Assembly: GCA_018056925.1 (NCBI GenBank)
Contig: JAGPEO010000001.1
Span: 1-43,588 of the forward strand
Length of the DNA: 43,588 nt
DNA from: Phycisphaerae bacterium
Lineage (GTDB): Bacteria; Planctomycetota; Phycisphaerae; UBA1845; Fen-1342
Direction of reading: 5' to 3'
Under the pieces are notes generated by a model, which searched no databases, was not told where the DNA came from, and saw nothing but the letters and a program-made list of their open reading frames with translations. Of the stretch, positions 17,106 to 40,664 are shown one piece after another (position 1 is the stretch's first letter; the number at the start of each line of letters is the position of its first letter). The position numbers and the translations under genes were made by a program.

Positions 17106-18161
17106 TTGAGACTTCCCGTGGAGCGGCCGGAGATTTCGGTAGTAGTGCCCGTTTATCAGGAGGAAGCCAGCCTTCCTACGGTCATCCCGCGCTTTTTGGA
17201 ATCGCTCAAGGCACAGTCGCGGAGTTTCGAGTTAATCGCGGTTAACGATGGCAGCCGCGATCGGAGCGGCGAGATTCTGGATCGCTTCGCGGCCCGCGAG
17301 CCGCGCCTGCGGGTCATCCACTTTGCCCGCAACTACGGGCAGACCGCGGCCCTGATGGCGGGCTTTTGGGCCGCCCGGGCCCCGGTGATCGTGCCGCTGG
17401 ACGGCGACGGGCAGAATGAGCCGGACGAGATCGGGCGCCTGGTGGACGAACTGGAGCGCGGCTACGACGTGGTCAGCGGCTGGCGCAAGGACCGCAAGGA
17501 TTCCTGGCTGCGGACGCGCGTTTCGCGGGCGGCCAACTGGCTGATCGGGCACATCACCGGCGTTCGGCTGCACGACTATGGCTGCACGCTGAAAGCCTAT
17601 CGAGCCGCGATGATTCGCGATGCGCGGCTGTACGGGGAGATGCACCGCTTCATCCCGGTGTTCACCAGCATGCACGGGGCGAGAATCACAGAACTGGTCG
17701 TGCGGCATCATCCGCGCATGGCGGGCGAAACCAAGTACGGGTACGACCGCGTGCTGAAGGTGTTGTTCGACCTGGTTCTGGTGCGCATGCTGCAGCGCTA
17801 TCGCACTAAGCCAATGCACTTTTTCGGCAAGATCACGAAATGGTCGTGGCTGGCGGCGTTGCTGTGCCTGGTGTTTGCGGGCGTGCAGGCGGCGTTATCC
17901 CCCACGCCGTGGCAGGCGTTCTGGGGCAAGGCGCCGGTGGTGGGCGTGATGTTCTTCCTGCTGGGCGGATTTTCGATCATGCTCGGCCTGGTAGCGGAAC
18001 TGGCGATGCGCGCCGCTTACGAATTCAACGCCGGGCGGTACTGGGATGAAGCGCGGCGCGTCAACTTCGAATCGAGCAGCGAGGATTGGGGCGTGCCACG
18101 GAGCATGTCGGCCGACCTCCGCTCAGCCGCTGTTGAAGAAGTTGCGGAAGCAGGTCGGTAA
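17106..18161 (+). CDS. GT2 polyprenol-phosphate glycosyltransferase (ArnC/GtrB/Dpm1-like) with C-terminal TM pair
   Basis: VVVPVYQEE, NDGSRD, DGDGQN (DxD). Two C-terminal TM helices. TTG or GTG start, uncertain. Confidence 0.85.
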   Translation: MRLPVERPEISVVVPVYQEEASLPTVIPRFLESLKAQSRSFELIAVNDGSRDRSGEILDRFAAREPRLRVIHFARNYGQTAALMAGFWAARAPVIVPLDGDGQNEPDEIGRLVDELERGYDVVSGWRKDRKDSWLRTRVSRAANWLIGHITGVRLHDYGCTLKAYRAAMIRDARLYGEMHRFIPVFTSMHGARITELVVRHHPRMAGETKYGYDRVLKVLFDLVLVRMLQRYRTKPMHFFGKITKWSWLAALLCLVFAGVQAALSPTPWQAFWGKAPVVGVMFFLLGGFSIMLGLVAELAMRAAYEFNAGRYWDEARRVNFESSSEDWGVPRSMSADLRSAAVEEVAEAGR

Positions 18162-18253
18162 AACGGACACTTTTCCGTTCGGCGAATGTCCGACTCGGCG
18201 CCTCCGGCCTTGCCGGCCTTGACCCGCGTTCTACGCCGAGACATCCTAGAATT

Positions 18254-19891
18254 ATGCAACCCGCACCCCAGGAGCCGACCGCCCGAGGCACGTATATGCC
18301 GGCCGCTCGAGGCACGGATGTGTCGTACGCCCGAGCCGCGTATCTGCCTGTAGTGGCAGCCATCTGTTTGTTCACCCTGCTCGTGCTGCGCACCGCCTGG
18401 ATTTCGGACGACGCGTGTATCACATTTCGCACGATCGAGAATTTTCTCGGGGGGGACGGCCTACGGTGGAACGTCGATGAGCGCGTGCAAGTGTATACGC
18501 ATCCGTTATGGCTTTTTCTGCTGACCGCCTGCAGAGTGGTCACGGGCGAGCTCTCCCTGACTACCATTACCGTCTCAACGATCCTGTCGGTCGCGACGGT
18601 GCTGATCTTGGCCGGACGCCTGGCGGTGGCCGCATTGCCCGCGCTGGTCGGTGTGATGGCGTTGGCGCTCTCGAAAGCCTTCACTGATTTTTCAACTTCT
18701 GGGCTCGAGAACGCGCTCATGCACCTCCTTCTGGCCGGATTTGCGGTGGTCTATTTCGCCGGAGAGCCAACGCGCCGAACAGTATTCTGGTTATCCCTCC
18801 TGACCGCGCTACTCGTACTGACGCGGCCGGATGCGCTGCTGCTGGTCGCGCCGGCACTGGCGCTGACGCTGTGGCGCGTGCGGGCGTTTCTGCCGAGCGT
18901 CTTGGGGTTCATTCCACTGATTGCCTGGGAGCTCTTCTCGCTGATTTATTATGGCTTTTTGCTGCCCAACACTGCCTATGCCAAGCTGAATACCGGCTTG
19001 CCGCAGCACGTCCTGGCCGAACGCGGAATGTACTACATAGTCCAGACGCTACAGCATGATTCGCTCACGCTGGTCGTCCTGGCGGTTGGCCTCTTGACGC
19101 CGTTTCTGATGAACGCCCGAAAGCACATGCCGCTGGCGGTAGGAGCCTGCCTGTACATCGCGTACGTGGTAAGCGTAGGCGGTGATTTCATGCTCGGGCG
19201 GTTTCTGACCGCCCCCTTGTTAATTGCGGTCATTTTGCTGGCCCGCCAGCACCTGGCCACGCCGACCGCCCTCATCCTGCTGGCGTTGGTGATGATCATC
19301 GGCCTGGTTCCGAAGCGTGCGCCCATTTACGCCGACGAGAACTACGGGTCGCGGTATGACGGAATCTGCCTCGTGCAGGATGAACGCGCCTGCTATTACC
19401 CGCATACTGGGTTGTTGACCGCCTTCCACAGACGACAATTTCTCGATCACATCTGCGTCGAGCAGGGCCTGGCGGCCAGGCGGGCCGACAAGCCGGTCGT
19501 GCGCAGCTCGATCGGCATGTTCGGGCTCCATGCCGGCCGCGAGACGTTCATCGTGGACGAATTGGGGTTGGGCGACGCCTTGCTTGCGCGGCTGACGCCC
19601 ATTCCAGAGGAGGATTGGCGAATCGGACACCTGCACCGGGCAATTCCGGCCGGCTACCTCGAAACGCTGGCGACCGGGCACAACCAGATCGCCGACCCAG
19701 AACTGGCGGCGTACTACGACCGCATCGCCCTGGCAACGCGCGCGGATTTATTCGACCCCCGACGTTGGAAGGCGATAGCCGAGCTAAATCTGGGACTGGT
19801 TCGGCCGCCCCGAAAGTACGTGCTCGCCCAGGCGCCTACGGATCAAGGGGCCCGCGTCCGCGGGTCTTCTCGCGAGACCTCGACCCCGTAA
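18254..19891 (+). CDS. GT-C fold polytopic membrane glycosyltransferase (ArnT/PMT/Emb-like)
   Basis: At least 10 predicted TM helices. An acidic DD motif in the first loop (WISDDACITFR). A soluble C-terminal domain. Lies directly downstream of the GT2 gene. Confidence 0.65.
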   Translation: MQPAPQEPTARGTYMPAARGTDVSYARAAYLPVVAAICLFTLLVLRTAWISDDACITFRTIENFLGGDGLRWNVDERVQVYTHPLWLFLLTACRVVTGELSLTTITVSTILSVATVLILAGRLAVAALPALVGVMALALSKAFTDFSTSGLENALMHLLLAGFAVVYFAGEPTRRTVFWLSLLTALLVLTRPDALLLVAPALALTLWRVRAFLPSVLGFIPLIAWELFSLIYYGFLLPNTAYAKLNTGLPQHVLAERGMYYIVQTLQHDSLTLVVLAVGLLTPFLMNARKHMPLAVGACLYIAYVVSVGGDFMLGRFLTAPLLIAVILLARQHLATPTALILLALVMIIGLVPKRAPIYADENYGSRYDGICLVQDERACYYPHTGLLTAFHRRQFLDHICVEQGLAARRADKPVVRSSIGMFGLHAGRETFIVDELGLGDALLARLTPIPEEDWRIGHLHRAIPAGYLETLATGHNQIADPELAAYYDRIALATRADLFDPRRWKAIAELNLGLVRPPRKYVLAQAPTDQGARVRGSSRETSTP

Positions 19892-19919: not shown

Positions 19920-21284
19920 TCAGCACCCGCCCGGAATCTTGTATTTGGCCATCTTGTCGCGCAGCGTCGTCCGCGGAATGCCCAGCCGTTGGGCGGCCCG
20001 CACCTGGTTGTTATCGCATTGCCGCAGCGCCAGCAGGATCATCCGCCGCTCAATGTCCGAGAGCGTGTCCGTCAGCCCCGGCCGCGCACCCTCAGGCGGT
20101 TCCATGCCCGCGGCCCACGCCACCGGCTCGGTCGCTTCGACTACCGGCGCGGTTATGTGTTCCGGCCGGATTTCATGACCGCCGCAGAACGCCAGGGCGC
20201 GCTCCATCACGTGCTCCAGCTCGCGCACATTGCCCGGCCAGTTGTGCCGTAAGAGCTGATCGAGCGCCGCCGGCGAGATCGTCACCACCCGGTCGCCCGT
20301 CAACGCGGCGTGCTTTTTCAGGAAGTGTCGCGCCAGCAGCGGAATGTCGTCCGGCCGCTCGCGCAGCGGCGGAATCGCCAGGCTGATCACGTTCAGCCGG
20401 TAGTACAAATCTTCCCGGAACCGGCCTTCCTTGACGAGCTTGAGCAGATCGCACTTCGTCGCGCACAGCAGGCGCACGTCGACGTGCACGGGCGTCTCGC
20501 CGCCGACGCGCTCAAACTCCTGCTGCTCGACGACGCGCAGCAGCTTGACCTGAATTTCCACCGGGATGTCGTCCACCTCATCCAGCAGAATCGTCCCCGT
20601 GTGCGCCAGCTCGAACCGCCCTGGCTTCTGCCGGATCGCCCCGGTAAAAGCCCCCTTTTCGTGCCCGAACAATTCGCTTTCGAGCACCGAAGCCTGCAAG
20701 GCCGCACAACTGAATCGTACGAACGGCTTATCAGCCCGGCGGCTGAGGTCGTGAATAGCCTCGGCGAAAAGCTCTTTGCCGGTGCCGCTCTCGCCGCACA
20801 ACAGAATCGTGCGATCAGTATCGGCCACGGCCCGCACCTGCGCGAACAGCCGCTTCATGCTCTGGCTGACGGCAACCAGTTGCGAGAGTTGCTCGACTTC
20901 CTCGTTCCGCGGGACTTCGCTGCGCACGGCCAGCAGGCGCTCCAGCTTGGGAACCAGTTCCTGGGTCGTGAAGGGCTTGGTGATGTAGTCGTACGCGCCG
21001 CCTTTGATGGCCTGCACGGCGGTGTCCACCGAGGCGTAGGCAGTCATCAGGATGACGCCGACGTCCGGCCGCGCCTGCTTGATATGCGCCAGCAGGTCTA
21101 GGCCGTTGGCGCCCGGCAGGCGAACATCCGATACGACGATGTCGATGGGCTTGGAATCGAAGATGCGCCGCGCCGCCAGCGCATCGGCGGCCTCGAAGAC
21201 TTCGAAGCCCAGTTCGCTGAGCTCGATCTGAAGCGTGATGCGCTTCAGCGGCTCGTCATCAACCACCAGGATGCGACCGCGCAT
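19920..21284 (-). CDS. Sigma-54-dependent response regulator (NtrC family enhancer-binding protein)
   Basis: REC domain (VVDDE...VSDVRLPG...TKPF), AAA+ Walker A GESGTGKE, GAFTGA loop, and a C-terminal Fis-type HTH (AAQRLGIPRTTLRDKM). Confidence 0.93.
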   Translation of the reverse strand: MRGRILVVDDEPLKRITLQIELSELGFEVFEAADALAARRIFDSKPIDIVVSDVRLPGANGLDLLAHIKQARPDVGVILMTAYASVDTAVQAIKGGAYDYITKPFTTQELVPKLERLLAVRSEVPRNEEVEQLSQLVAVSQSMKRLFAQVRAVADTDRTILLCGESGTGKELFAEAIHDLSRRADKPFVRFSCAALQASVLESELFGHEKGAFTGAIRQKPGRFELAHTGTILLDEVDDIPVEIQVKLLRVVEQQEFERVGGETPVHVDVRLLCATKCDLLKLVKEGRFREDLYYRLNVISLAIPPLRERPDDIPLLARHFLKKHAALTGDRVVTISPAALDQLLRHNWPGNVRELEHVMERALAFCGGHEIRPEHITAPVVEATEPVAWAAGMEPPEGARPGLTDTLSDIERRMILLALRQCDNNQVRAAQRLGIPRTTLRDKMAKYKIPGGC

Positions 21285-26636: not shown

Positions 26637-28127
26637 TCAGGTGGGCTCGGCCGCCGACTCCGCGCCGGCGGACTCATGCTTTACGCCGGTCACCTTCGCC
26701 TTCTCCAGAAGCATAGACACGGTCTTGTCCTGCCGGATTCGTTCGGCGAGCTGCGACAGCAGCCCCTGCTGCTGTAACTCGTCGCGCACGCGGTCGAACC
26801 GGCGGTTGTAACGCCGCGCCATCGCCGCGATGGCCGTGTTGACTTCCTCGTCCGTAACCTCGATTTCGAGCTTTTCCGCGGCTTTTTCTAGGATGAACCC
26901 GAGCTTCAGTTCGCGCGTTACGTCCTCTTTGGCCGAGCTGCGCAGCGCATCCGCGCGCGCCAAAACCTCGTCCTCAGGCACGCCGCGCTGCCGCAACTCG
27001 ATCATGCGCCGCACCACGGCCCGGTCAATCTGCCGGGCGGACAGCTTCTCCGGCAGCTCGAGGCTCGTCTTCTCGAGCAGGAAAGCCTCGACCTGGGCGC
27101 GCTTGGCGCGCTCGATCATCTCGTCGCGGTCGCGCTCCATCATCATGCGGAAGTGATCAAACGCGTCGGCTTCCTTGTCGAACCCGGCGCGCTGCAGGAA
27201 GTCGTCCAGCGGCATCGGCACCAGCCGCTTCAGCTCGTGAATACGGAAAGTGAACCGCCCCTTCTGACCGCGAATGTCAGCCCGCTCGTAATCATCCGGA
27301 ATCGTGCAGGTCGCCTCGCGCGTCTCGCCCGGCTTGGCGCCTTCCAACACCTTGTCCAGATCGGGCACCTGCACCCCGTCCAACGCCGCCGGACGCACGC
27401 CAAGCTGCACGTTCTCTTCAGTCTTGATCTGCTTGTCGTCCACCGTCAGAACGACATCCGCTATGACCAGGTCGCCGCGCTCGGCTCCACCCTCCGGCTG
27501 TGGCTCGAACCGTCCGCGCAGCTTGCGTTGCCGCAGTACCTCGTCCGCGACCATCTGATCGGTGATCTCGATCTCCGGCGACTTGATCTGGATGCCCTCA
27601 AGCTCCGGCAACTCGAACGTCGGCTTGACCTCGATCTCGCACACGTAGTCGAAATCGCCCTCGGCCGGCAGCTTCATGTGCTGCAGGGCCTCGTCGAACT
27701 CCATGAGCTTGACGCCCTCTTCGCCGGCGTCGATGCGGAACAGCGGCTCGCCCAGCACGTCCAGCTCGTGCTTATCGGTGACCGCGAAGTAAGACTGTCC
27801 GACGATGGAGGTCGTCAGCGATTCGCGCACCTCGCTCCCGAAGCGCTTTTCGATCAGCCGTCGCGGAGCGTGGCCCTTGCGGAAGCCGGGCACGATCGCG
27901 TCGTGGCGCAGCTCGTCGTAGTTGTGGTCGAGGTGGTCGGCGATGACCTTGGCCGGCACTGTGATGTGCAGCTCTTTGCGGAGGGTGCCGATGTCCTTGA
28001 TGTCCGCCTTGACTTCCTTCTTCAGGTCCTCAAGTAGGTGCTCCGCCTCCTTTTCCGCCTTTTCGCGAAGAACCGGATCTTCCATCGCGCCGGGTATGCC
28101 CGGCATGCCGGGTAGCTGCATGTCCAT
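26637..28127 (-). CDS. tig: Trigger factor with about 40-aa N-terminal extension
   Basis: PGFRKGHAPRRLIEKRFG ribosome-binding motif, a PPIase-like middle region, and a C-terminal helical arm. Lies upstream of clpP. Confidence 0.92.
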   Translation of the reverse strand: MDMQLPGMPGIPGAMEDPVLREKAEKEAEHLLEDLKKEVKADIKDIGTLRKELHITVPAKVIADHLDHNYDELRHDAIVPGFRKGHAPRRLIEKRFGSEVRESLTTSIVGQSYFAVTDKHELDVLGEPLFRIDAGEEGVKLMEFDEALQHMKLPAEGDFDYVCEIEVKPTFELPELEGIQIKSPEIEITDQMVADEVLRQRKLRGRFEPQPEGGAERGDLVIADVVLTVDDKQIKTEENVQLGVRPAALDGVQVPDLDKVLEGAKPGETREATCTIPDDYERADIRGQKGRFTFRIHELKRLVPMPLDDFLQRAGFDKEADAFDHFRMMMERDRDEMIERAKRAQVEAFLLEKTSLELPEKLSARQIDRAVVRRMIELRQRGVPEDEVLARADALRSSAKEDVTRELKLGFILEKAAEKLEIEVTDEEVNTAIAAMARRYNRRFDRVRDELQQQGLLSQLAERIRQDKTVSMLLEKAKVTGVKHESAGAESAAEPT

Positions 28128-29367: not shown

Positions 29368-30621
29368 ATGCAAAACGCACCCAAAGGTCTCAGGCTGCAC
29401 ATCGGCATCTTCGGCCGCCGCAACGTCGGCAAGTCATCCTTGTTGAACGCGCTCACGCGGCAGGAAGTGTCGATAGTCTCGGCCTGCGCCGGCACAACTA
29501 CCGACCCGGTCGAAAAGCCGATGGAATTGCTGCCCATCGGGCCGGTGCTGTTCATCGACACGGCCGGCGTGGACGACATCGGCGCCCTCGGGCAGCAGCG
29601 TGTTGAGCGGACGCGCCGGATTTTTGACCGCACCGACGTCGGCCTGATCGTTGCCGAGGCCGGCGAGTGGGGCGCTTTCGAAGAAGGCATTCTGAACGAA
29701 CTGGCCGGCCGGAATGTCCCGGCAATTGCGGTTTTCAACAAATGTGATTTGGCGTCGCCGTCGCCCGAGGTCCTAGCGCGGCTGAACGAACGGAAAATTC
29801 GGCACGTCCAGACGGTCGCCGGCCGTGGTGATGGACTGGCAGATTTGCGCGAAGCCCTGATCCGGTCCGCGCCAGACGACTTTGTCAACACACCGGCGAT
29901 CATCGGCGACCTTGTTCCGCCCGGCGAGCTGGCACTACTGGTCGTTCCCATCGACAAGGAAGCGCCGAAGGGGCGCCTGATCCTGCCGCAGGTGCAGACG
30001 ATTCGCGACCTGCTCGACCACGAAGCCTTCTGCATGGTTGTGAAGGAACGAGAGCTGCGCCAGGCGATTGACCGTCTGCGCCGCCCGCCGGCGCTGGTGG
30101 TGACAGATTCGCAGGCGTTCCTGAAGGTCTCGGCGGATACTCCGCTCGAGGTGCCGCTGACGTCCTTCTCTATCCTCTTCGCACGCTTCAAGGGCGACCT
30201 GACGGAGATGGTGCGCGGCGCGACCGCCATCGACCGGCTGCGACCCGGCGATCCCATCCTCATCGCCGAGGCCTGCTCGCATCACCCGATCGGCGAGGAC
30301 ATCGGCCGGGTGAAGATCCCGCGCTGGCTAACGCAGTACGTGGGCGGCGAGCTCGAATTCACTACGACTCAGGGGCACGACTTCCCGCCCGACCTGGCCG
30401 AGTACAAGCTCGTGATTCACTGCGGCGCCTGCGTCCAGAACCGGCGCGAGGTGCTTTCGCGAATCTTGAAATGCCGCCGCGCCGGCGTTCCGATCACGAA
30501 TTACGGCTTGGCGATCGCGTATTCGCTGGGCATTTTCGAGCGAGCCCTCGGGCCGTTTCCGGCCGCGCTGGAAGCCTACCGGGCGGCGCTCGCTGAGGGC
30601 GGGGGCGCGTCGCCCAGGTGA
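29368..30621 (+). CDS. hydF: [FeFe]-hydrogenase maturation GTPase HydF
   Basis: GTPase motifs GRRNVGKSS, DTAG, NKCD. C-terminal cluster motif EACSHHP ... HCGACV. Confidence 0.93.
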   Translation: MQNAPKGLRLHIGIFGRRNVGKSSLLNALTRQEVSIVSACAGTTTDPVEKPMELLPIGPVLFIDTAGVDDIGALGQQRVERTRRIFDRTDVGLIVAEAGEWGAFEEGILNELAGRNVPAIAVFNKCDLASPSPEVLARLNERKIRHVQTVAGRGDGLADLREALIRSAPDDFVNTPAIIGDLVPPGELALLVVPIDKEAPKGRLILPQVQTIRDLLDHEAFCMVVKERELRQAIDRLRRPPALVVTDSQAFLKVSADTPLEVPLTSFSILFARFKGDLTEMVRGATAIDRLRPGDPILIAEACSHHPIGEDIGRVKIPRWLTQYVGGELEFTTTQGHDFPPDLAEYKLVIHCGACVQNRREVLSRILKCRRAGVPITNYGLAIAYSLGIFERALGPFPAALEAYRAALAEGGGASPR

Positions 30622-30855: not shown

Positions 30856-31206
30856 ATGAAGCTGGCCACTTTGGCAGAGAAAATCGGAGCCCGGCTCCTG
30901 ACGCCCGGCAAGACGCTAAATGTCGCTGCCGACCAGGTTTACGCCGGTGATCGCATCAGCGATCTGCTCAATGCGGCCAGCGAGCACGTGTTGATGGTGA
31001 CCAACCTCGCCAGCGGACAGCTCACCATGATGGCCGGTCTCCTCGACGTGCCCTGCATCTGCCTGGTGAACAGCCAGATGCCCGACGAGACGATGCTCCG
31101 CAGCGCCCGCGAACACGGAACCGCCATCCTGGTTTCATCCTGCGGGCTCTTCGAAACCTGCGGCCGAATTTACCGCTGCCTTGCGGAGGAAGACCATTTG
31201 CCGTGA
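30856..31206 (+). CDS. DRTGG-domain protein (copy 1)
   Basis: 116 aa. Same length and pattern as copy 2 (VYAGDRISDLL ... LVNSQMPDETMLRSAREHGTAILVS...FETCGRIY). Confidence 0.7.
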   Translation: MKLATLAEKIGARLLTPGKTLNVAADQVYAGDRISDLLNAASEHVLMVTNLASGQLTMMAGLLDVPCICLVNSQMPDETMLRSAREHGTAILVSSCGLFETCGRIYRCLAEEDHLP

Positions 31207-32825
31207 CCTCCGTCTCGTACCAGATCGAGGGGGGCAATTACGAAACGGGTGGGGCAGCCTCGCGCCAGATTAAAGAACAACTTAAGAAAATCGGGGCGGA
31301 TCCGGCGGTTGTCAGGCGGGCCATGGTGGCCGCCTACGAAGCCGAGATGAATGTGGTAATTCACTCGCACGGGGGCGAACTGCGGGCGGAACTGGACGAG
31401 CACGAATTACGCGTCGACGTGATCGACACCGGGCCCGGCATTCCCGACGTGGAACAGGCCATGAAGCCCGGCTTCTCGACGGCTTCGGCCAAGGCCCGGG
31501 AACTGGGCTTCGGCGCGGGCATGGGCCTGCCGAATATCAAGAAAAACAGCGATCATTTCGCGATCGAATCGGCGGCCGGACGTGGCACTCGCGTCAGTTT
31601 TACGATTCACCTACGTCCGCAGGCGCTGTACGGCGCGGGGCAGTTCTCGATCCAGGTTGAAGCCGAAAAATGCCGCCGATCGCTGCATTGCCTGCGGGCT
31701 TGCCCGACGCAGGCACTGCGGGTGCTGCGGGGCAAGCCTGAGATCCTGGATTACTTGTGCATTGACTGCACCGAGTGCATTGCCGCGTGCCCAAGCGGTG
31801 CGTGGGGTCTGCGGTCCGCGGGCGAAGAGCTTAAGCCATCCCCCGGTTCCATCCTCATACTGCCTCCGGTGAGCCTGGTGCAGTTCGGGGCGGGTATTAC
31901 TGCGGGGCAAGTCCTAACTGAGCTGGCGTACCTGGGCTTCTCGGATATCCGCGTAACGGCGGCCTGGGAAAGCGCGCTACGTAAGGCCGTCATGCAATAC
32001 GCGGCCGGCGAGACGCGCGTCCGCCCTGTGATCTCACCCGTGTGCCCGGCGGTTGTGAACCTGATTCAGTTGCGCTTCCCGTCGCTGCTGCCGCACGTGG
32101 CCCCGTTTCTTTCAGCCCAAGAGGCCGCCTATGAGAGCGTGGTCGGCGAGGATCGCAGGCTGCTGTCGCTGGTACCCTGCCCGTGCCAGTTGACGATTGT
32201 GCGGTCCCGCGACAGACCGGTGGAAAAGCGGTCCCACGTTCTGGCGGTGCTGCCGGCGACGTTCGCGGCCGTGTTGCACCCGCGCCTAAAGCGGGGAACA
32301 GGCCGCTCCGCCGACACGGGGTCAACGCCGGCCGCTCCGGACCCGCTGGGCGTCTTGCGCGTGACTGGAATCCATAAAGTGCGGCAGGTTTTGGAACGGC
32401 TGGAGGACGGGCTGCTGACCGACATCACGGTAATCGAGCCGTATGCCTGTTTTGCGGGCTGTTTTGGATCGCCGCTGTTTACGGAAGTCGCCAGCGTGGC
32501 CCAATATCGCTGGGCCCTGGCGCCGGCCAAACCCGATCCGCGGGCGCGGGCGGTGCGACGCGTGGTTCCGCTGGAGCCACGGCACGGGCTGCGGCTGGAT
32601 GCGGACATGACGCGCGCCATTCAGAAGTTGGCCAGGATTGATAAACTGCGCCGCAGCCTCCCCGGCAGCAATTGCGGCAATTGTGGAGCGCCGACCTGCG
32701 CGGCACTGGCCGAGGACATTGTTCTGGGGCGTGCCCAGCTCGATGCTTGCGTGCGGCAGAGGATGGATAACGAACCGGCCGCCAAGCAGTCGCGGCCCGG
32801 GCCTCCAGCGGAGGAAAGTAAATGA
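31203..32825 (+). CDS. Fusion of an RsbW/SpoIIAB-like Ser/Thr kinase, a 2x[4Fe-4S] ferredoxin, an [FeFe]-hydrogenase H-domain-like module and an RnfB-type FeS domain
   Basis: GHKL motifs (YEAEMNVVIH, DTGPGI, GAGMGLPNIKK). CRRSLHCLRACP and CIDCTECIAACP. L1-, L2- and L3-like ISPVCPAV, VPCPCQ and EPYACFAGCFGSP. C-terminal CGNCGAPTCAALAEDI. GTGA overlap with the upstream gene. Confidence 0.8.
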   Translation: MTSVSYQIEGGNYETGGAASRQIKEQLKKIGADPAVVRRAMVAAYEAEMNVVIHSHGGELRAELDEHELRVDVIDTGPGIPDVEQAMKPGFSTASAKARELGFGAGMGLPNIKKNSDHFAIESAAGRGTRVSFTIHLRPQALYGAGQFSIQVEAEKCRRSLHCLRACPTQALRVLRGKPEILDYLCIDCTECIAACPSGAWGLRSAGEELKPSPGSILILPPVSLVQFGAGITAGQVLTELAYLGFSDIRVTAAWESALRKAVMQYAAGETRVRPVISPVCPAVVNLIQLRFPSLLPHVAPFLSAQEAAYESVVGEDRRLLSLVPCPCQLTIVRSRDRPVEKRSHVLAVLPATFAAVLHPRLKRGTGRSADTGSTPAAPDPLGVLRVTGIHKVRQVLERLEDGLLTDITVIEPYACFAGCFGSPLFTEVASVAQYRWALAPAKPDPRARAVRRVVPLEPRHGLRLDADMTRAIQKLARIDKLRRSLPGSNCGNCGAPTCAALAEDIVLGRAQLDACVRQRMDNEPAAKQSRPGPPAEESK

Positions 32826-33184
32826 CTCTCGCGGAAATCGCGGAAAGACTGGGGCTGCAAAACCTGACGCCTGAGATCAGCCCGGCCGCGGCCGACGTGA
32901 CCGGCGGATACGTCTCGGACCTGCTAAGCGATGTACTGGCGAACGCACCGAAGGGCGGCGTTCTGGTAACGGTTCAGGTGCACCTGAACGTGATCGCGGT
33001 CGCGGTCCACGCCGAACTGGCCGCCATTATCTTCGCTTCTGATCGCGTTCCGGATGACACTGTTCAGGCAAAGGCGAAGGAAGAAGGCATCGCCCTGTAC
33101 TGCTCGAAGGCTTCGGCATTTGAGGTGGTCGGGCGACTGTGGGAAATGGGCGTGCGAGGGCCGCGGCAGAGTGATACGAAGTGA
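32822..33184 (+). CDS. DRTGG-domain protein (copy 2)
   Basis: VTGGYVSDLLSDVLANA...VTVQVHLNVIAVAV...AKEEGIALY.SKASAFEVVGRLWEMG. ATGA overlap with the upstream gene. Confidence 0.8.
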   Translation: MTLAEIAERLGLQNLTPEISPAAADVTGGYVSDLLSDVLANAPKGGVLVTVQVHLNVIAVAVHAELAAIIFASDRVPDDTVQAKAKEEGIALYCSKASAFEVVGRLWEMGVRGPRQSDTK

Positions 33185-33322: not shown

Positions 33323-34114
33323 TTGAAGCTCTGGGCCGCCGACCTGCATATCCATACCGCCCTGTCGCCCTGTGCGGCGGATGAGATGACGCCGCCGGCC
33401 ATCGTGCAGGCGGCCCTGGAGCGCGAGCTGTCGATGATCGCGATTTGCGATCACAACGCGGCCGGCAATGCCGAGGCCGCTGCTGCCGCCAGCCTATGTG
33501 CCGGCCGCACCGTCGCCGGTCTCAAACTGGCGGTCCTGGCGGGCATGGAAATCATGACGGCCGAGGAAGTGCACATTCTGGGCATTTTTCCGAGCCCGGC
33601 CGCGGCGGCAGCGGCCGCGAAAGAGGTGCGTGCTACTCTGCCCGAGGCCACCGTCGCGTATCACCAGAAGTTCGGGCAGCAGCTTGTAATTGATTCGGGC
33701 GGGTCGATCGTCGATTCCGAGCCGAAAATGCTGGCCATGGCTTCGGGCTTCGACCTGTCGGCGGCGGTGCGGCTGATACACCGGCATGAGGGGCTGGCGA
33801 TCGCGGCGCACGTCAACCGCCCGTCGTTCAGCGTGTTCAGCCAACTCGGCATGTTCCCGGGGGACGCCGGTTTTGACGCCATCGAGGTTTTTACGCCCTG
33901 TGGCGACGGACCCGACGCTTCGCGAGCCGAAAGCCATACGGTCGTGGCGGAGTTCTCAAAATACGGCTTACCTGTCATCGCCTCGTCGGACGCCCATTAC
34001 CTGGATGACGTGGGGTCGGTACGTTCGCGCCTGCGGTTGCGGGAGCCGAGTTTCGACGAACTGGTGATGGCCCTGCGCGGTTCATGCGGGCGGCGCGTGG
34101 TACACGATGCGTGA
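33323..34114 (+). CDS. PHP-domain metal-dependent phosphoesterase
   Basis: DLHIHTALSPC, ICDHNA, AAHVNRP, ASSDAHY. TTG start with GAGGTG upstream. Confidence 0.85.
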   Translation: MKLWAADLHIHTALSPCAADEMTPPAIVQAALERELSMIAICDHNAAGNAEAAAAASLCAGRTVAGLKLAVLAGMEIMTAEEVHILGIFPSPAAAAAAAKEVRATLPEATVAYHQKFGQQLVIDSGGSIVDSEPKMLAMASGFDLSAAVRLIHRHEGLAIAAHVNRPSFSVFSQLGMFPGDAGFDAIEVFTPCGDGPDASRAESHTVVAEFSKYGLPVIASSDAHYLDDVGSVRSRLRLREPSFDELVMALRGSCGRRVVHDA

Positions 34115-34652
34115 GTTAGCGCTGCACATTCTCGACCTGGTCGAAAACTCGATCCGGGCCAACTCGTCAGTCATAGAGGTCACGGTCGCCGCGGACCAGA
34201 CGGCCGACCGCCTGCGCATCCAGATAGATGACAACGGCCCGGGCCTGAAGGTGACGCCTCAGCAGGCCCTGGACCCCTTCTATACGACCAAGTCCGGGAA
34301 ACGCACTGGTCTGGGCCTGAGCCTGTTCAAGGCGGCCGCCGAACGGGCGGGCGGACGGCTTACTTTAGAACGCTCGGACTTGGGCGGCCTGCGGGTTTTG
34401 GCGGAGATGGGCCTGCGACACGTAGACCGCAGCCCGCTGGGGGATCTGGCGACATCGCTGGGATCGGTCGTGTGCGCGAATCCGCACATCGATTTTCACT
34501 TTCGCATAAGTCACGACGGGCACGAGACTTGCATCCGAACCTGGGAGCTGGCACATGAACTTGGCCTGCCCCCCGACGATTCAATCGCTCTGGCACGCCG
34601 CGTGATAGAGACGATCCGGACGGAACTTGAAACGGCGAGGGGACTGGCTTAA
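34107..34652 (+). CDS. Stand-alone GHKL (histidine-kinase-like) ATPase without HisKA or receiver domains
   Basis: N-box LDLVENSIRAN, G1 DDNGPGL, G2 GLGLSL. 8-nt overlap with the PHP gene. Confidence 0.8.
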   Translation: MRELALHILDLVENSIRANSSVIEVTVAADQTADRLRIQIDDNGPGLKVTPQQALDPFYTTKSGKRTGLGLSLFKAAAERAGGRLTLERSDLGGLRVLAEMGLRHVDRSPLGDLATSLGSVVCANPHIDFHFRISHDGHETCIRTWELAHELGLPPDDSIALARRVIETIRTELETARGLA

Positions 34653-34754: not shown

Positions 34755-35306
34755 ATGAGTGAGGACCGCAAAGTAGGATGCACGTGCTCGTGCGGCGAGG
34801 AAGTCTCCGAGCAGGAGTTGCTTGCCCGCCTGGACGGCGTGCTCGCCGAATATCGGGACAAGCCCGGTGCTTTGATCCCGGTGTTGCAGATGGCGCAGGG
34901 CATCTTCGGCTATCTGCCCGAGGTGGCCTTGAAGCGGATTGCGTTAGGGCTGAACAAGTCCTACAGCGAGGTAGCCGGCGTCGTCAGTTTTTATTCCTTC
35001 TTCTCGACTGTGCCGCGCGGCAAGCACCTGGTGCGGGTCTGCCTGGGTACGGCCTGCTACGTGCGCGGCGGCAAACGCGTGCTCGACACGCTCAAGCAGA
35101 AGCTGGGCATCGACGTCGGCGAAACGACGCCCGACCGCCAGTTCACGCTCGAAGTGGCACGCTGCTTCGGGGCGTGCGGGCTGGCGCCGGCCATCATGAT
35201 CGACGATGACGTCCATCACCGTGTCAAGCCCAACAAGATCGAGCTGGTCCTCGGTCCGTATCGAAACGGCGAGGCGGCCAAGGCGGAAAGGAAGGTCCCG
35301 GCATGA
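34755..35306 (+). CDS. hydC: NuoE/HydC-like [2Fe-2S] subunit of NAD(P)-linked hydrogenase
   Basis: VCLGTACYVRGG ... ARCFGACGLAPA is the thioredoxin-like 2Fe-2S motif. AGGAG Shine-Dalgarno upstream. Confidence 0.9.
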   Translation: MSEDRKVGCTCSCGEEVSEQELLARLDGVLAEYRDKPGALIPVLQMAQGIFGYLPEVALKRIALGLNKSYSEVAGVVSFYSFFSTVPRGKHLVRVCLGTACYVRGGKRVLDTLKQKLGIDVGETTPDRQFTLEVARCFGACGLAPAIMIDDDVHHRVKPNKIELVLGPYRNGEAAKAERKVPA

Positions 35307-35668
35307 CTCGCATCAACAGCCCCCAAGACCTGAAAGCCCTTCAAGAGAAAGCCAAGAAAGACATCGACCTGCGCAGCGGCCAGAAGGACATGCGCATCAC
35401 CGTCCACATGGGCACCTGCGGCATCGCCGCCGGGGCGCGCGACGTGCTGGCCGCTCTGTTGACCGAGCTGGGTCCGGCCACCGACAAAGTCACAATCACG
35501 CAGACCGGCTGCGCCGGGCTGTGCGACCAGGAACCCATGCTCACGCTCACCGATAAGGCCGGCGGTTCCTTCCGCTACGGGCGTTTGGACAAGAACAAGG
35601 TTGGCCAGATCGTGCGCGAGCACGTGTTGCGCGGCCAGCCGGTGCTGGAATACATGATTAAGTGCTAG
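35303..35668 (+). CDS. Small thioredoxin-like [2Fe-2S] ferredoxin (HndB/HydD-like)
   Basis: VHMGTCGIAAGA ... QTGCAGLCDQEP. ATGA overlap with hydC. Confidence 0.8.
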   Translation: MTRINSPQDLKALQEKAKKDIDLRSGQKDMRITVHMGTCGIAAGARDVLAALLTELGPATDKVTITQTGCAGLCDQEPMLTLTDKAGGSFRYGRLDKNKVGQIVREHVLRGQPVLEYMIKC

Positions 35669-35756: not shown

Positions 35757-38700
35757 ATGAATAACGTCAGAAGTCACGTTCTCGTCTGCACCGGCGGCGG
35801 CTGCATTGCCTCAGGGGCCCTCGAAGTTTCCGCGGCCCTGCGCGAGCAGCTCGAGAAGCACGGCTTGCACCACGAGATCAAGGTTATCGAGTCCGGCTGC
35901 CTGGGTCCCTGTGCGGTCGGCCCGGTCGCCTCCGTCTATCCCGATGGCACGTTCTACCAGGGATTGCGGGCCGACGACGCGGAGGAAATCGTCAAAGAGC
36001 ATCTGCTCAAGGGCCGCGTGGTCGAACGCCTGGTCCACAAGACGCCGGCCGGCCAGCCCGTTTCCGGCCTGCATGAGATCGGCTTCTTCCAGAAGCAGGT
36101 CAAAATCGTGCTGCGCAACTGCGGCGTGATCGACCCGCTGCGGATCGAGGAATACATCGCCCGCGACGGCTATCAGGCCCTCGGCAAGGTCCTGACCGAG
36201 ATGACGCCCGAGCAGGTCATCGCCGAGATGAAGAAGTCCGGCCTGCGCGGCCGTGGCGGGGCCGGCTTCCCGACCGGCTTGAAGTGGGAATTCACCCGCA
36301 AGAGCAAGGGCGAGGTCAAGTACATCCTGTGCAACGGTGACGAAGGCGACCCCGGCGCATTCATGGACCGCAGCGTCCTGGAAGGCGATCCGCACAGCGT
36401 AATCGAGGGCATGGCCATCGCCGCCTACGCCATCGGCGCGCACCAGGGCTTTGCCTATATCCGTGCCGAATACCCGCTGGCGGTCGAGCGTTTCCAGCAC
36501 GCCCTCAAGCAGGCCCGCGACTGCGGCTTGCTGGGGAAGAACATCATGAACAGCGGCTTCGATTTCGATATCGAAGTCCGCATGGGTTCCGGCGCGTTCG
36601 TCTGCGGCGAGGAAACCGCCCTGATGACGAGCATCGAAGGCAACCGCGGCGAGCCGCGTCCACGGCCCCCGTTCCCGGCCGTCAAAGGCCTGTGGGACAA
36701 GCCGAGCTGCCTGAACAACGTCGAGACCTTCGCCAGCGTGCCGGTCATCATGCACAAGGGCGCCGACTGGTACGGCTCCTACGGCACCGAGAAGAGCAAG
36801 GGCACCAAAGTGTTCGCCCTGGCGGGTGCGGTCAACAACACCGGCCTGGTCGAAGTGCCCATCGGCATGCCGCTGGGCGAGATCATCCACGACATCGGCG
36901 GCGGCATTCCGGGCGGCAAGAAGTTCAAGGCGGCCCAGATGGGCGGCCCGTCCGGCGGCTGCATCCCGAAAGAGCACCTGAACGTTCCGGTCGATTACGA
37001 GTCGCTGACCGAACTGGGCGCGATCATGGGCTCCGGCGGCATGATCGTCATGGACGAGGACACGTGCATGGTGGACGTGGCCCGCTTCTTCCTGGACTTC
37101 TGCCAGGATGAGAGCTGCGGCAAGTGTCCGCCGTGCCGCGTCGGCACCAAGCGCATGCTCGAAATCGTGAGCCGCATTTGCGAAGGCCTGGGCGAGGAAG
37201 GCGACGTCGAGAAGCTGATCGAGCTGGGCCAGACCATCAAGGACACGGCCTTGTGCGGGCTGGGTCAGACCGCCCCCAACCCGGTCCTGTCCACCATTCG
37301 ATATTTCCGCGACGAGTACGACGCCCACATTCGCGAGAAGCGCTGCCCGGCCGGCGTGTGCCCGTCACTGGTGCGAGCCCCCTGCCAGAGCGCCTGCCCG
37401 GCCGGCGTGGACGTGCCCGGGTTCGTCTCGCTGGTGGGCGAAAAGCGGTACGCCGAGGCCTTGGCGCTGCATCGCAATCGCAACCCGTTCGCGTCCGTTT
37501 GCGCCCGCGTGTGCTTCCACGCCTGCGAGGACAAGTGCCGCCGCGGCAGCCTCGACGAAGCGGTCGCCATTCGCGGCGTCAAACGCTTCATGGCTGAACA
37601 GGAAGTCACGGTTCAGCTCCCCTCCGTGCAGGACAACGAGGAAAACGCCCGCCGCAAGATCGCCATCATTGGCGCCGGCCCGGCCGGCCTGTCGTGTGCG
37701 TACTTCCTGGCGCGGCTCGGCTACCGCCCGAAGGTGTTCGAGGCCGAGTCACAGCCGGGTGGCATGCTGGTGCAGGCGATTCCCGCCTACCGGCTGCCGC
37801 GGCAGGAATTGGCCCGCGAAATCCGCATGATTGAGCGGCTCGGCGTGGACATCGAGCTGAACATGCGTCTCGGCCGAGACTTCACGCTGGAGAGCCTCCG
37901 CAAGGACGGCTATGAGGCCGTGTTCCTCGCCGTCGGCGCTCCGCAAGGCTCGAAGCTGGGTATCCCCGGCGAAGAGGCCGACGGCGTGGTCGACGCCCTG
38001 CGGTTCCTCCGCGAGTACAACGTCCGCGGCACCGCCCAGGTGGGCAAGAACGTGGTCGTTATCGGCGGCGGCAATTCGGCGATCGACGCGGCTCGGACCG
38101 CAATCCGCCTGGGAGCCGAGTCGGTTACCGTGCTCTACCGCCGAACGCGTGCCGAAATGCCCGCCTTCGCCGAAGAAATTGACGAAGCCGAGCACGAAGG
38201 CGTACGGATCGCGACCCTCGTCGCCCCGCTTGAAGTCGTGCAGAAGAACGGCAAGGTCGCCGGTCTCAAGTGCCGCCACATGGTCCTGGGCGAGTTCGAC
38301 CGCAGCGGGCGTCGCCGGCCGGTCGACGGCAAAGACGAAGACTTCATCGTCCCGGCCGACATGATCATCGCCGGCATCGGACAAAAACTCGACACGGCCG
38401 AAATCTTCAACGGCCAGGCCCTGAAGGTGAATCGTTCCGGCTTCATCGCCGCGGACCGAATCACCGGGCAGACCTCAGTGCCGTGGATTTACGCCGGCGG
38501 CGATGCGGCCGTCGGACCCTGGTCGGTCGTGGGCGCCATCGCGGATGGCGAAAAAGCGGCTGTGGCGATCGACAAGATGCTCACCGGGGCCGAGCACGCC
38601 TTCTGGCGTGAGAACCAGCAGCCGGACACCGAGTTTGACCCGGACGCCGATCCGGTGCAGTACCCGCGGGCCAAGCAGGCCATGATTCCGGTGAGCAAGC

Positions 38701-38834
38701 GCAAGAACAACTTCCAGGAGGTCGAGCTGTCCTGGTCGGAGGCCGTGGCGCGGCGCGAAGCCAAGCGTTGCCTGCGGTGCGACTACCGGGCGCCGGCGGG
38801 TTCCGAAGGTAAAGTTCCGCCCTGCAAGCAGTAA
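35757..38834 (+). CDS. hydB: NuoF/HydB-like flavoprotein subunit fused to a GltD/NfnB-like FAD/NAD(P)H oxidoreductase
   Basis: N-terminal 2Fe-2S (CTGGGC...CLGPC), GLRGRGGAGFPTGLKW, CGKCPPCRVG. From about 37340, the GltD-type cluster region (APCQSACPAGVDVP, CARVCFHACEDKCRR) and two Rossmann motifs (IIGAGPAGLS, VIGGGNSAIDAA). Confidence 0.88.
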   Translation: MNNVRSHVLVCTGGGCIASGALEVSAALREQLEKHGLHHEIKVIESGCLGPCAVGPVASVYPDGTFYQGLRADDAEEIVKEHLLKGRVVERLVHKTPAGQPVSGLHEIGFFQKQVKIVLRNCGVIDPLRIEEYIARDGYQALGKVLTEMTPEQVIAEMKKSGLRGRGGAGFPTGLKWEFTRKSKGEVKYILCNGDEGDPGAFMDRSVLEGDPHSVIEGMAIAAYAIGAHQGFAYIRAEYPLAVERFQHALKQARDCGLLGKNIMNSGFDFDIEVRMGSGAFVCGEETALMTSIEGNRGEPRPRPPFPAVKGLWDKPSCLNNVETFASVPVIMHKGADWYGSYGTEKSKGTKVFALAGAVNNTGLVEVPIGMPLGEIIHDIGGGIPGGKKFKAAQMGGPSGGCIPKEHLNVPVDYESLTELGAIMGSGGMIVMDEDTCMVDVARFFLDFCQDESCGKCPPCRVGTKRMLEIVSRICEGLGEEGDVEKLIELGQTIKDTALCGLGQTAPNPVLSTIRYFRDEYDAHIREKRCPAGVCPSLVRAPCQSACPAGVDVPGFVSLVGEKRYAEALALHRNRNPFASVCARVCFHACEDKCRRGSLDEAVAIRGVKRFMAEQEVTVQLPSVQDNEENARRKIAIIGAGPAGLSCAYFLARLGYRPKVFEAESQPGGMLVQAIPAYRLPRQELAREIRMIERLGVDIELNMRLGRDFTLESLRKDGYEAVFLAVGAPQGSKLGIPGEEADGVVDALRFLREYNVRGTAQVGKNVVVIGGGNSAIDAARTAIRLGAESVTVLYRRTRAEMPAFAEEIDEAEHEGVRIATLVAPLEVVQKNGKVAGLKCRHMVLGEFDRSGRRRPVDGKDEDFIVPADMIIAGIGQKLDTAEIFNGQALKVNRSGFIAADRITGQTSVPWIYAGGDAAVGPWSVVGAIADGEKAAVAIDKMLTGAEHAFWRENQQPDTEFDPDADPVQYPRAKQAMIPVSKRKNNFQEVELSWSEAVARREAKRCLRCDYRAPAGSEGKVPPCKQ

Positions 38835-38852: not shown

Positions 38853-40664
38853 ATGCCAAAGCTTACGATTGACAACATCCCCGTCGAGGTTCCCGAGGGA
38901 ACCAGTGTCCTGGAAGCGGCCCAAAAGGCCGGCATCCGGATTCCGACGCTGTGCTATCTTAAGGACGTGCAGGCCATCGGCGCCTGCCGCGTGTGCACGG
39001 TGGAGATCAAGGGCGCCCGTACGCTCGTGGCCTCTTGCTCCCAGCCCGCGACTGAGGGCATGGAAGTAAAAACCAACACGCGCCGCGTGCGCCAGGCGCG
39101 CCGCACCGTCGTCGAGCTTCTCCTCTCCGAGCACGACGGCGACTGCCAGACCTGCAACCGCAGTGAAGACTGCGAGCTGCAGGCCGTGGCGCGTGAGCTT
39201 GGGGTTAAGGACATCACCTACCCCGGCGCCAAGGCCGCTCGCTTCCGCGACACCAGCACGCCCGCTCTGACCCGCGACACCGCCAAGTGCATCGCCTGCC
39301 GGCGTTGCGTGACGGTCTGCAACAACGTCCAGGGCGTCGCAGCCCTGTGGGCTCAGAACCGCGGGTTCAAGACCGTCATCGGTCCGGCCTTCTGCCAGAA
39401 CCTGGACGAAGTCGTGTGCGTGCAGTGCGGCCAGTGCGGGGCCGTGTGCCCGGTCGGCGCAATCACCGAGAAGGACCACATCGCGGCTGTCTGGGAAGCC
39501 TTGGATGACCCCAACAAGCACGTTGTGGTGCAGACCGCCCCTGCCATTCGCGCCGCCTTGGGCGAATGCTTCGGCTACCCGCCCGGCACGCGCGTTACCG
39601 GCAAGATGACCGCCGCCCTGCGGCGTCTCGGATTCGACGGTGTGTTCGATACGAACTTCGCCGCCGACCTGACCATCATGGAAGAGGGCACCGAGTTGCT
39701 CATGCGGCTCAAGCATGCCCTGGTCGATTCCAAGAAGGGCGGCGGCAACGGCCACAAGGACGATCATCACACGCCGGGTCCGCTGCCGATGTTCACGAGC
39801 TGCTCGCCGGGCTGGATCAAGTTCCTCGAGCACTACTACCCGGACATGACGGCGAATCTGTCCACGTGCAAGTCGCCGCAGCAGATGTTCGGCGCGGTCG
39901 CCAAGACTTACTACGCCCAGAAGATCGGCAAGAAGCCGGAAGATATCTTTGTGGCGTCGGTCATGCCTTGCACCGCCAAGAAGTACGAGTGCCAGCGGCC
40001 TGAGATGAACGACAGCGGCGTGCAGGATGTCGATGCGGTCCTGACCACTCGCGAGTTGGCTCGCATGATCAAGCAGGCCGGCATCCGCTTCGAGCAACTG
40101 CCGGATGAGAAGATGGACGCCCCGCTGGGCATCTCGACCGGCGCTGCCGACATCTTCGCCAATACCGGCGGCGTGATGGAAGCGGCCCTGAGAACCGCTT
40201 GGGAAATCGTGACCGGCAAGCCGTTGCCGTTCGAGAATCTGCACGTGCAGCCGATCGCCGGCCTCGAAGGCGTCAAGGAAGCGTCCGCAAAGATCACCGG
40301 CGCCAAGCCGGAGTGGTCGTTCCTCGAAGGCGCCGAGCTGAAGGTCGCGGTCGCCCACGGCCTGGGCAACGCCCGCAAGGTCATCGAGGCGGTCCGTAGC
40401 GGCCAGAAGCAGTATCACTTCATCGAAGTGATGACCTGCCCCGGCGGTTGCATCGGTGGCGGCGGGCAGCCGCGGCTGACGACGAACGACCACCGCCTGG
40501 CCCGCATCCGGGCGATCTACGAGGAAGACGAACATCGCGAGCTGCGCAAGAGCCACGAAAACCCGGCCGTTTTGCAGCTTTACAAGGAATTCCTCGGTCA
40601 GCCGCTAGGCGAGAAGTCGCACAAGCTGCTGCACACGAAGTACGTGGCGCGTACTAAGGTTTAA
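38853..40664 (+). CDS. hydA: [FeFe]-hydrogenase catalytic subunit, long multi-cluster form with non-canonical L1 motif
   Basis: N-terminal 2Fe-2S and F-cluster domains (CIACRRCVTVC, CVQCGQCGAVCP). L1 FTSCSPGW, L2 VMPCTAKKYE, L3 EVMTCPGGCIGGGGQP. C-terminal small-subunit-like tail. Confidence 0.92.
   Translation: MPKLTIDNIPVEVPEGTSVLEAAQKAGIRIPTLCYLKDVQAIGACRVCTVEIKGARTLVASCSQPATEGMEVKTNTRRVRQARRTVVELLLSEHDGDCQTCNRSEDCELQAVARELGVKDITYPGAKAARFRDTSTPALTRDTAKCIACRRCVTVCNNVQGVAALWAQNRGFKTVIGPAFCQNLDEVVCVQCGQCGAVCPVGAITEKDHIAAVWEALDDPNKHVVVQTAPAIRAALGECFGYPPGTRVTGKMTAALRRLGFDGVFDTNFAADLTIMEEGTELLMRLKHALVDSKKGGGNGHKDDHHTPGPLPMFTSCSPGWIKFLEHYYPDMTANLSTCKSPQQMFGAVAKTYYAQKIGKKPEDIFVASVMPCTAKKYECQRPEMNDSGVQDVDAVLTTRELARMIKQAGIRFEQLPDEKMDAPLGISTGAADIFANTGGVMEAALRTAWEIVTGKPLPFENLHVQPIAGLEGVKEASAKITGAKPEWSFLEGAELKVAVAHGLGNARKVIEAVRSGQKQYHFIEVMTCPGGCIGGGGQPRLTTNDHRLARIRAIYEEDEHRELRKSHENPAVLQLYKEFLGQPLGEKSHKLLHTKYVARTKV

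Follow-up and report, generated by a model that had tools for sequence, protein, structure and literature searches.

The window (the whole stretch of 43,588 nucleotides analyzed here, from a Planctomycetota MAG) contains a group of [FeFe]-hydrogenase genes, the features of which are collected in Table 1. Directly upstream of hydA, on the same strand, lie the genes for a NuoF-like HydB and a NuoE-like HydC, the gene neighborhood of a HydABC-type enzyme. The HydB protein is organized as an N-terminal thioredoxin-like 2Fe-2S domain, a NuoF-like FMN/NADH domain, Fer4_20, and a pyridine-nucleotide-disulphide oxidoreductase domain, in that order. The maturase gene hydF was found 8 kb upstream of hydA; hydE and hydG were also sought within the window but were not found, leaving hydF as the only maturase gene there. 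A second hydrogenase homologue, of 540 aa, was observed upstream at 31203-32825. It is clearly degenerate, unlike HydA, and fits a sensory (group C/D-like) type.

Table 1. Hydrogenase genes and HydA sequence features in the window, with the evidence for each.
Feature	Position	Strand	Evidence
hydF, H-cluster maturation GTPase	29368..30621	+	TIGR03918 553 bits (cut-off 326); Pfam HydF_tetramer, HydF_dimer
hydC, 183 aa, NuoE-like [2Fe-2S] subunit	34755..35306	+	Pfam 2Fe-2S_thioredx 4.7e-48; NCBIfam HoxE/NuoE models
Small thioredoxin-like [2Fe-2S] protein, 121 aa, HndB/HydD-like	35303..35668	+	Pfam 2Fe-2S_thioredx 1.5e-6
hydB fused to GltD-like module, 1025 aa	35757..38834	+	Pfam Complex1_51K, NADH_4Fe-4S, Fer4_20, Pyr_redox_2; NCBIfam nuoF_fam, PRK12771
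hydA, 603 aa, M3-type [FeFe]-hydrogenase catalytic subunit	38853..40664	+	Pfam, NCBIfam, PDB, Foldseek
Proton-pathway segment IMEEGTEL, residues 275-282, then Arg285	39675..39698	+	Aligned to CpI segment TIMEEATELVQR; invariant in relatives
Gly/His-rich insertion DSKKGGGNGHKDDHHTPG, residues 292-309, lineage-specific	39726..39779	+	Gap versus all three solved homologues
L1 motif TSCSPGW, residues 315-321	39795..39815	+	Ungapped alignment to A. woodii Ser301, T. kivui Cys299, CpI TSCCPGW
Cys317 at proton-relay position	39801-39803	+	L1 alignment
Ser318 (TCG) at cubane-ligand position	39804-39806	+	L1 alignment; Ser301Aw described as cubane ligand
L2 motif MPCTAKKYE, residues 371-379, Cys373 as cubane ligand	39963..39989	+	Aligned to CpI/A. 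woodii MPCT(S/A)KK
L3 motif EVMTCPGGCIGGGGQP, residues 525-540	40425..40472	+	Aligned to PDB homologues; relatives

HydA scored 900.4 bits against the NCBIfam model NF040763 ('NADH-dependent [FeFe] hydrogenase, group A6'; cut-off 765), in a match covering residues 3-600 of 603. Its N-terminus holds 2Fe-2S, His-ligated 4Fe-4S, and 2x4Fe-4S domains, followed by the H-domain and a small-subunit-like C-terminus; the Pfam families detected were Fe_hyd_lg_C (PF02906; 3e-97), Fe_hyd_SSU (PF02256), Fer2_4 (PF13510), NADH-G_4Fe-4S_3 (PF10588), and Fer4/ferredoxin-type domains. This combination of an H-domain, a small-subunit-like C-terminus, and M3-type N-terminal Fe-S domains, seen by both Pfam and Foldseek, is that of HydABC-type hydrogenases. 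When all PDB sequences were searched, the best match was 7q4v_A, the HydA1 of Acetobacterium woodii (also 7q4w and 8a5e), at an E-value of 6e-190, followed by HydA1 of Thermoanaerobacter kivui (8a6t_A) and Clostridium pasteurianum CpI. An AlphaFold model of HydA, of moderate confidence (pLDDT 72.7) and without cofactors, gave a Foldseek TM of 0.84 to both 8a6t_A and 7q4w_A, which confirms the fold only.

The L2, L3, and IMEEGTEL segments reported in a preliminary description of this DNA are all present at the residues given in Table 1. The textbook patterns for L2 (MPCxxKxxE) and L3 (ExMxCxxGCxxG) are matched by MPCTAKKYE and EVMTCPGGCIGG; both are invariant among relatives, MPCTAKKYE in 44 of them. 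By alignment, L3 supplies Cys529 as a cubane ligand and Cys533 as the cubane ligand bridging to the [2Fe] subsite, with Thr528 replacing the usual Ala. The proton pathway is likewise complete: C317, E278, S337, E281, and R285 align to the CpI residues C299, E279, S319, E282, and R286. Just upstream of L1 lies the Gly/His-rich insertion, which varies in length around a conserved GNGH...GPLP core, occurs only in the nearest relatives, and was modeled with pLDDT <50 at residues 293-307. Sensory or regulatory (group C/D-like) hydrogenases are recognized by replacement of the relay Cys and proton pathway and by fused PAS, kinase, or phosphatase domains; HydA retains Cys317 and the pathway and has no signaling domain. 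Outside the Ser318 site, all catalytic motifs and proton-path residues are conserved across HydA, its PDB homologues, and its relatives.

The exception lies in L1. The codons at 39795-39815 are ACG AGC TGC TCG CCG GGC TGG, and the HydA translation contains ...GPLPMFTSCSPGWIKFLEHYY...; with the reading frame starting at 38853, (39795-38853)/3 = 314, placing Thr at residue 315 and Ser at residue 318. Both the codons and the residue numbers given earlier for this motif were thus confirmed from the sequence and the ORF. The textbook L1 of catalytic group A enzymes is TSCCPxW, a relay Cys followed by a ligand Cys, whereas HydA reads TSCSPGW. In the PDB sequence search alignment, PMFTSCSPGWIKF of HydA stands opposite PMITSCSPGWIKF of A. 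woodii (S299-C300-S301), PMFTSCCPSWI of T. kivui (C298-C299), and PMFTSCCPGWV of CpI. There are no gaps around L1 in the alignments to A. woodii, T. kivui, or CpI, and the PMFTS and PGW flanks are conserved on both sides. Because these alignments are ungapped, Ser318 is the equivalent of Ser301Aw, of Cys299Tk, and of the second Cys of the CpI pair, Cys300, the cubane ligand next to the relay C299. The preliminary description had assigned the serine to the cubane-ligand rather than the relay position, and the alignments to all three solved homologues agree. HydA thus has the arrangement of the A. woodii HydA1 site, with Ser at the L1 ligand position, the relay Cys kept, and ungapped flanks; its TSCSPGWIKF is identical to that of 7q4v_A.

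Any departure from a textbook motif invites the reading that the true codon is TGC and that the serine stems from a mistake in sequencing or assembly, or from a pseudogene in decay. That departure is all that favors such a reading, to which we assign next to no probability. The reading frame is uninterrupted, and its product passes the curated cut-off of the family. The separately assembled Planctomycetota MAG L001 (DAIMSQ010000002.1) encodes a HydA 99% identical to that of the window; SNPs and a 3-nt indel separate the two within 80 nt of the motif, yet ACGAGCTGCTCGCCGGGCTGG and the motif codons are identical. Sequencing error is excluded because L001 differs nearby by SNPs and an indel but shares the motif codons. 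The earlier argument against a single base-call error, that TGC and TCG differ at two positions, stands, and it is reinforced by the same TCG in an independent, non-identical MAG and by the retention of Ser, through six different codons, in 77 of 80 related loci.

Those loci, drawn from one-genome-per-species contigs at 51-99% identity, included only three with Cys (TGC). The Ser loci belong to Planctomycetota, Verrucomicrobiota, and many Bacillota, among them Lachnospiraceae, Ruminococcaceae, Oscillospiraceae, Peptococcaceae, Christensenellaceae, Lutispora, Desulfitispora, and Selenomonadaceae. The 77 serines are encoded by TCG (23), TCT (22), TCA (18), AGT (6), TCC (5), and AGC (3). Because all six codons are used, it is the amino acid that is conserved rather than the nucleotides, a pattern that chance does not account for and that reflects purifying selection for Ser. 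When protein clusters were ranked by match to HydA, the top 120 (73-100% identity) comprised 116 with TSCSPGW, two with SSCSPGW, and two with TSCCPAW; their annotations name Phycisphaerae, Brocadiia, Hydrogenedentes, and Abyssobacteria, among others, and frequently give 'group A6' or 'HndD'. An unbiased HMMER scan was run over 1.84 billion 50%-identity representatives, and the 103 of the best 150 matches with complete L1-L3 motifs were counted: [TS]SCSP was present in 23 (22%) and TSCCP in 80. This frequency agrees with the published one, about 20% of putative [FeFe]-hydrogenases, which comes from an alignment cited in Kertess et al. (2017, Chem Sci; PMC5855289). Whether the Ser-type enzymes form one clade was addressed with a neighbor-joining tree of the 103 H-domains, which was star-like and poorly resolved; Fitch parsimony on this tree gave about 11 Ser/Cys changes, a figure unreliable as a count.

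The preliminary description had considered the serine unusual, with the proviso that TSCSP might prove to be common among group A enzymes that are ordinary and active. Common it is: Ser is the rule in this HydA family (116/120 clusters, 77/80 loci) and is also found in the active, spectroscopically normal enzyme of A. woodii. Within the HydABC-type family the Ser variant is normal, and earlier work had described it in a relative that is active and has a solved structure. With about 20% of sequences and the active A. woodii HydA1 carrying Ser here, the textbook L1 definition TSCCPxW is too narrow.

The A. woodii enzyme is the closest known system. In the cryo-EM study of Katsyv et al. (2023, JACS; PMC10021017), Ser301Aw, called 'the serine ligand of A1', was described as taking the place of the cubane ligand Cys299Tk, a direct precedent for the Ser-ligated site that was one of two options in the preliminary description. 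The A. woodii HydABC is active, with a normal FTIR spectrum and HoxH/Hhyd states, and NAD(P)H- and ferredoxin-coupled bifurcating H2 turnover is known for both A. woodii and T. kivui HydABC (PMC10021017). Since the reduced A. woodii map has a resolution of 3.4 A, the Fe-O(Ser) bond is modeled there rather than resolved, and no EPR, Mossbauer, or EXAFS support for O-ligation by Ser was found in the literature consulted. The 60%-similar A. woodii HydA1 (7Q4V, 7Q4W, 8A5E) shares with HydA its domain architecture, aligned over nearly the full length, as well as the TSCSP site, L2 and L3 motifs, and proton path. The partners are also shared, as the A. woodii HydABC(D) complex includes a NuoF-like HydB, a NuoE-like HydC, and a small thioredoxin-like 2Fe-2S protein. 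The two differ in the 18-residue Gly/His-rich loop before L1, which is extra in HydA; in the residue before the first L3 Cys, Thr in HydA and Ala in A. woodii; in the GltD-like module fused to HydB, absent from the HydB of Bacillota relatives; and in their hosts, a Planctomycetota MAG as opposed to an acetogenic Firmicute. HydA1 of T. kivui (8A6T, 8BEW) and CpI (4XDC, 1FEH) also have the same fold (Foldseek TM 0.83-0.84), L2 and L3 motifs, proton pathway, and ungapped L1, but they have the canonical TSCCP as L1 and only Cys ligands on the cubane. CpI works as a monomer and depends on ferredoxin.

The positional assignment could be challenged by a shift in register, in which Cys317 ligates the cubane while Ser318 or another group takes over the relay, or the relay is lost. 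The 3.4 A limit of the A. woodii map leaves some room for this reading, and Kertess et al. suggested that Cys114 may be an alternative ligand in the C115A variant of Chlamydomonas reinhardtii HydA1 (PMC5855289). We nevertheless consider it improbable. The L1 alignment is ungapped on both sides with PMFTS and PGW conserved, and in the deposited cryo-EM model the ligand is Ser301. A working proton relay is needed for the HoxH/Hhyd states of the normally active A. woodii HydABC. Neighboring residues on one strand face opposite ways; a swap would need a rearrangement of the backbone, and nothing in the sequence points there.

Natural and engineered serines behave very differently at this position. 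Kertess et al. (2017; PMC5855289) made substitutions at all four cubane cysteines of C. reinhardtii HydA1, in which the second L3 Cys (C366) is the bridging ligand. The C115S variant lost most of its cubane and its activity was abolished (<1 unit). The change is the same as that considered here, Cys to Ser at the equivalent ligand position beside a relay Cys (Cys114), but C115S is an inactive engineered variant, whereas the TSCSP enzymes found in nature are conserved, and that of A. woodii is active. Because C115S destroys cubane binding and activity in Chlamydomonas while the natural TSCSP enzyme of A. woodii works, the scaffold context must differ between them, and tolerance of Ser depends on that context.

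The motif was noted earlier still in the Melainabacteria: Di Rienzo et al. (2013, eLife; PMC3787301) described TSCSPGW in HydA of the trimeric confurcating hydrogenases of ACD20. These sequences resemble HydA in carrying TSCSPGW within a trimeric HydABC-type operon, but in two ACD20 proteins an L3 Cys is replaced by Ile, whereas HydA keeps both L3 cysteines. The ACD20 loss lends some weight to the idea that HydA is a non-catalytic or sensory paralogue, turning over no H2 and acting as an electron-transfer or regulatory subunit like the hydrogenase-like subunits of transhydrogenases. So does the extra GltD-like NAD(P)H module of HydB, which resembles Nfn/Stn-type transhydrogenases. The HydA-like subunit of those transhydrogenases is not known to carry an H-cluster. 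Such a role for HydA is hard to credit, and we rate it no higher than the shift in register: L2, L3, the relay Cys, and the proton-path E/E/R/S are intact and invariant among relatives, HydF is encoded nearby, the TSCSP counterpart in A. woodii is a functioning catalyst, and the separate degenerate sensory-type homologue in the window looks quite different.

The GltD-like module bears on a further point. The preliminary description had treated the co-occurrence of the serine with the HydB-GltD fusion as meaningful, but a tie between Ser318 and the fusion was rejected when the 80 loci were compared. The fusion, of about 1020-1050 aa, was found only in L001, L003-L013, and L029, all of them Planctomycetota or Verrucomicrobiota; TSCSP is not so confined. 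More than 50 Bacillota loci pair TSCSPGW with an unfused HydB of about 600 aa without a GltD match, which makes the serine and the fusion independent of each other. In the literature on such fusions, the only mention found concerned archaeal hybrid hydrogenases, whose HydB carries a glutamate-synthase domain.

HydA is thus very probably an ordinary, presumably active HydABC-type (group A6) [FeFe]-hydrogenase, of a family in which the second L1 Cys is normally Ser, with a cubane ligated by Ser318. The sequence, the positional equivalence, the family-wide occurrence of Ser, and the independence from the fusion come from this analysis; ligation, activity, and FTIR were determined by others for A. 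woodii, and by analogy we infer Ser ligation and activity for HydA. In the proposed mechanism, Cys317 would relay protons to the bridgehead amine, while the [4Fe-4S] part of the H-cluster would have one of its irons coordinated through oxygen by Ser318, as serinate. Cys373 (L2), Cys529, and Cys533 (L3) would provide the other three cubane ligands, with Cys533 bridging to the di-iron site. The N-terminal Fe-S domains would carry electrons onward to HydC and to HydB with its NuoF-like and GltD-like parts.

What allows the serine to be tolerated was sought by covariation in an H-domain alignment of 93 diverse representatives. No strong covarying partner of Ser318 was found there; the best column reached 0.23 bits, against 0.58 bits for the Ser/Cys column. 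A candidate is residue 528, which precedes the first L3 Cys (CpI A498). It is Ala or Ser in 91 of 94 Cys-type sequences and Gly, Thr, or Cys in 56 of 75 Ser-type loci and 8 of 14 Ser-type representatives, as in HydA itself, but this signal is weak and confounded by shared ancestry, and A. woodii HydA1 does not follow it. A more speculative proposal, which we think unlikely though less so than the alternatives above, is that the Ser ligand might not be neutral: it might adjust the potential of the H-cluster cubane, or how the cubane is protonated, to suit the confurcating or bifurcating chemistry of HydABC, and only scaffolds with compensating second-sphere changes, as hinted at by residue 528, might tolerate it. 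If so, the failure of C115S in Chlamydomonas HydA1 would be explained. In the Planctomycetota subclade, such a Ser ligand, a His-rich loop where the proton pathway opens, and the GltD-fused HydB could together define a distinct NADPH-linked variant.

Ser in place of a Cys cubane ligand is an already known and widespread property of HydABC-type hydrogenases. TSCSP should therefore not count as anomalous, nor should it lead to such genes being annotated as inactive, and L1 screens for catalytic [FeFe]-hydrogenases should be relaxed from TSCCPxW to TSC[CS]PxW. It also matters which of the two cysteines is altered: sensory types are recognized by a missing relay, the first Cys, whereas Ser at the second Cys is no such mark. 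For the field, HydA adds one more example to the question of why Ser works in such enzymes but destroys the cluster in Chlamydomonas HydA1.

The residue directly before the first cysteine of L3, Thr528 in HydA, was compared between sequences carrying serine at the cubane-ligand position of L1 (TSCSP; Ser318 in HydA) and those carrying cysteine there (TSCCP). Alanine or serine occupied the Thr528 position in 91 of 94 TSCCP sequences; among the serine type, glycine, threonine, or cysteine was found in 56 of 75 loci and in 8 of 14 representatives. Residue 528 covaries weakly with the serine ligand, an association that is confounded by phylogeny. Two of the top protein representatives were of unusual architecture: P0121 comprises seven HydA-like stretches in a single protein of 4122 aa, and P0122 (1104 aa) bears an N-terminal extension of about 510 aa preceding a TSCSPAW HydA.

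In HydA, the proton-pathway helix and L1 are separated by a Gly/His-rich insertion, DSKKGGGNGHKDDHHTPG. HydA1 of A. woodii and of T. kivui, C. pasteurianum CpI, and the 590-aa relatives all lack it. The insertion was confined to the nearest Planctomycetota relatives, where its length varies (spacer of 23–37 aa) and the core GNGH...H..GPLP is kept. With pLDDT < 50 in the AlphaFold model, the insertion is predicted to be disordered. The surface end of the HydA proton pathway is located near this insertion.

Features of the hydrogenase region and its surroundings
Feature	Position	Strand	Remarks
SecY	1470-2867		
MreB	13986-15038		
Glycosyltransferases	17106-19891		
Sigma-54-dependent response regulator	19920-21284	-	
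Trigger factor	26637-28127		
HydF maturase	29368-30621	+	TIGR03918, 553 bits
Sensory-type hydrogenase homologue	31203-32825	+	540 aa
ORF downstream of homologue	32822-33184		120 aa; no family match
PHP-domain protein downstream of homologue	33323-34114		
HATPase_c protein downstream of homologue	34107-34652		
HydB-GltD fusion	35757-38834	+	1025 aa
Gly/His-rich insertion	39726-39779		HydA residues 292-309
Thr528 codon	40434-40436		CpI Ala498
Aspartyl-tRNA synthetase	41951-43525		

Genes around the hydrogenase region have housekeeping and regulatory functions; together with locus L001, a 99% identical HydA locus from a separately assembled Planctomycetota MAG, and with the way the nearest relatives are annotated, they fit an origin from a Planctomycetota (Phycisphaerae-like) chromosome. 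The maturase HydF is encoded nearby; no candidate for hydE or hydG turned up among the window's larger ORFs.

In the sensory-type homologue, a kinase domain resembling SpoIIAB is accompanied by two [4Fe-4S] motifs and a degenerate H-domain, after which the Fe-S domain PF04060 forms the C-terminal part. The L1-like motif, ISPVCPAVV, has valine in place of the relay cysteine and retains the ligand cysteine; the L2-like and L3-like motifs read VPCPCQ and EPYACFAGCFGS, respectively. The homologue and the three genes downstream of it likely constitute a regulatory module for the hydrogenase operon.

The fusion of HydB to a GltD-like NAD(P)H/FAD/2x[4Fe-4S] module was kept in the Planctomycetota and Verrucomicrobiota loci (L001, L003-L013, and L029); HydB of the Bacillota relatives is without it. 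The sole precedent found in the literature is a glutamate-synthase domain on HydB of archaeal hybrid hydrogenases. The presence of the GltD-like module suggests that HydB has an extra pyridine-nucleotide site.
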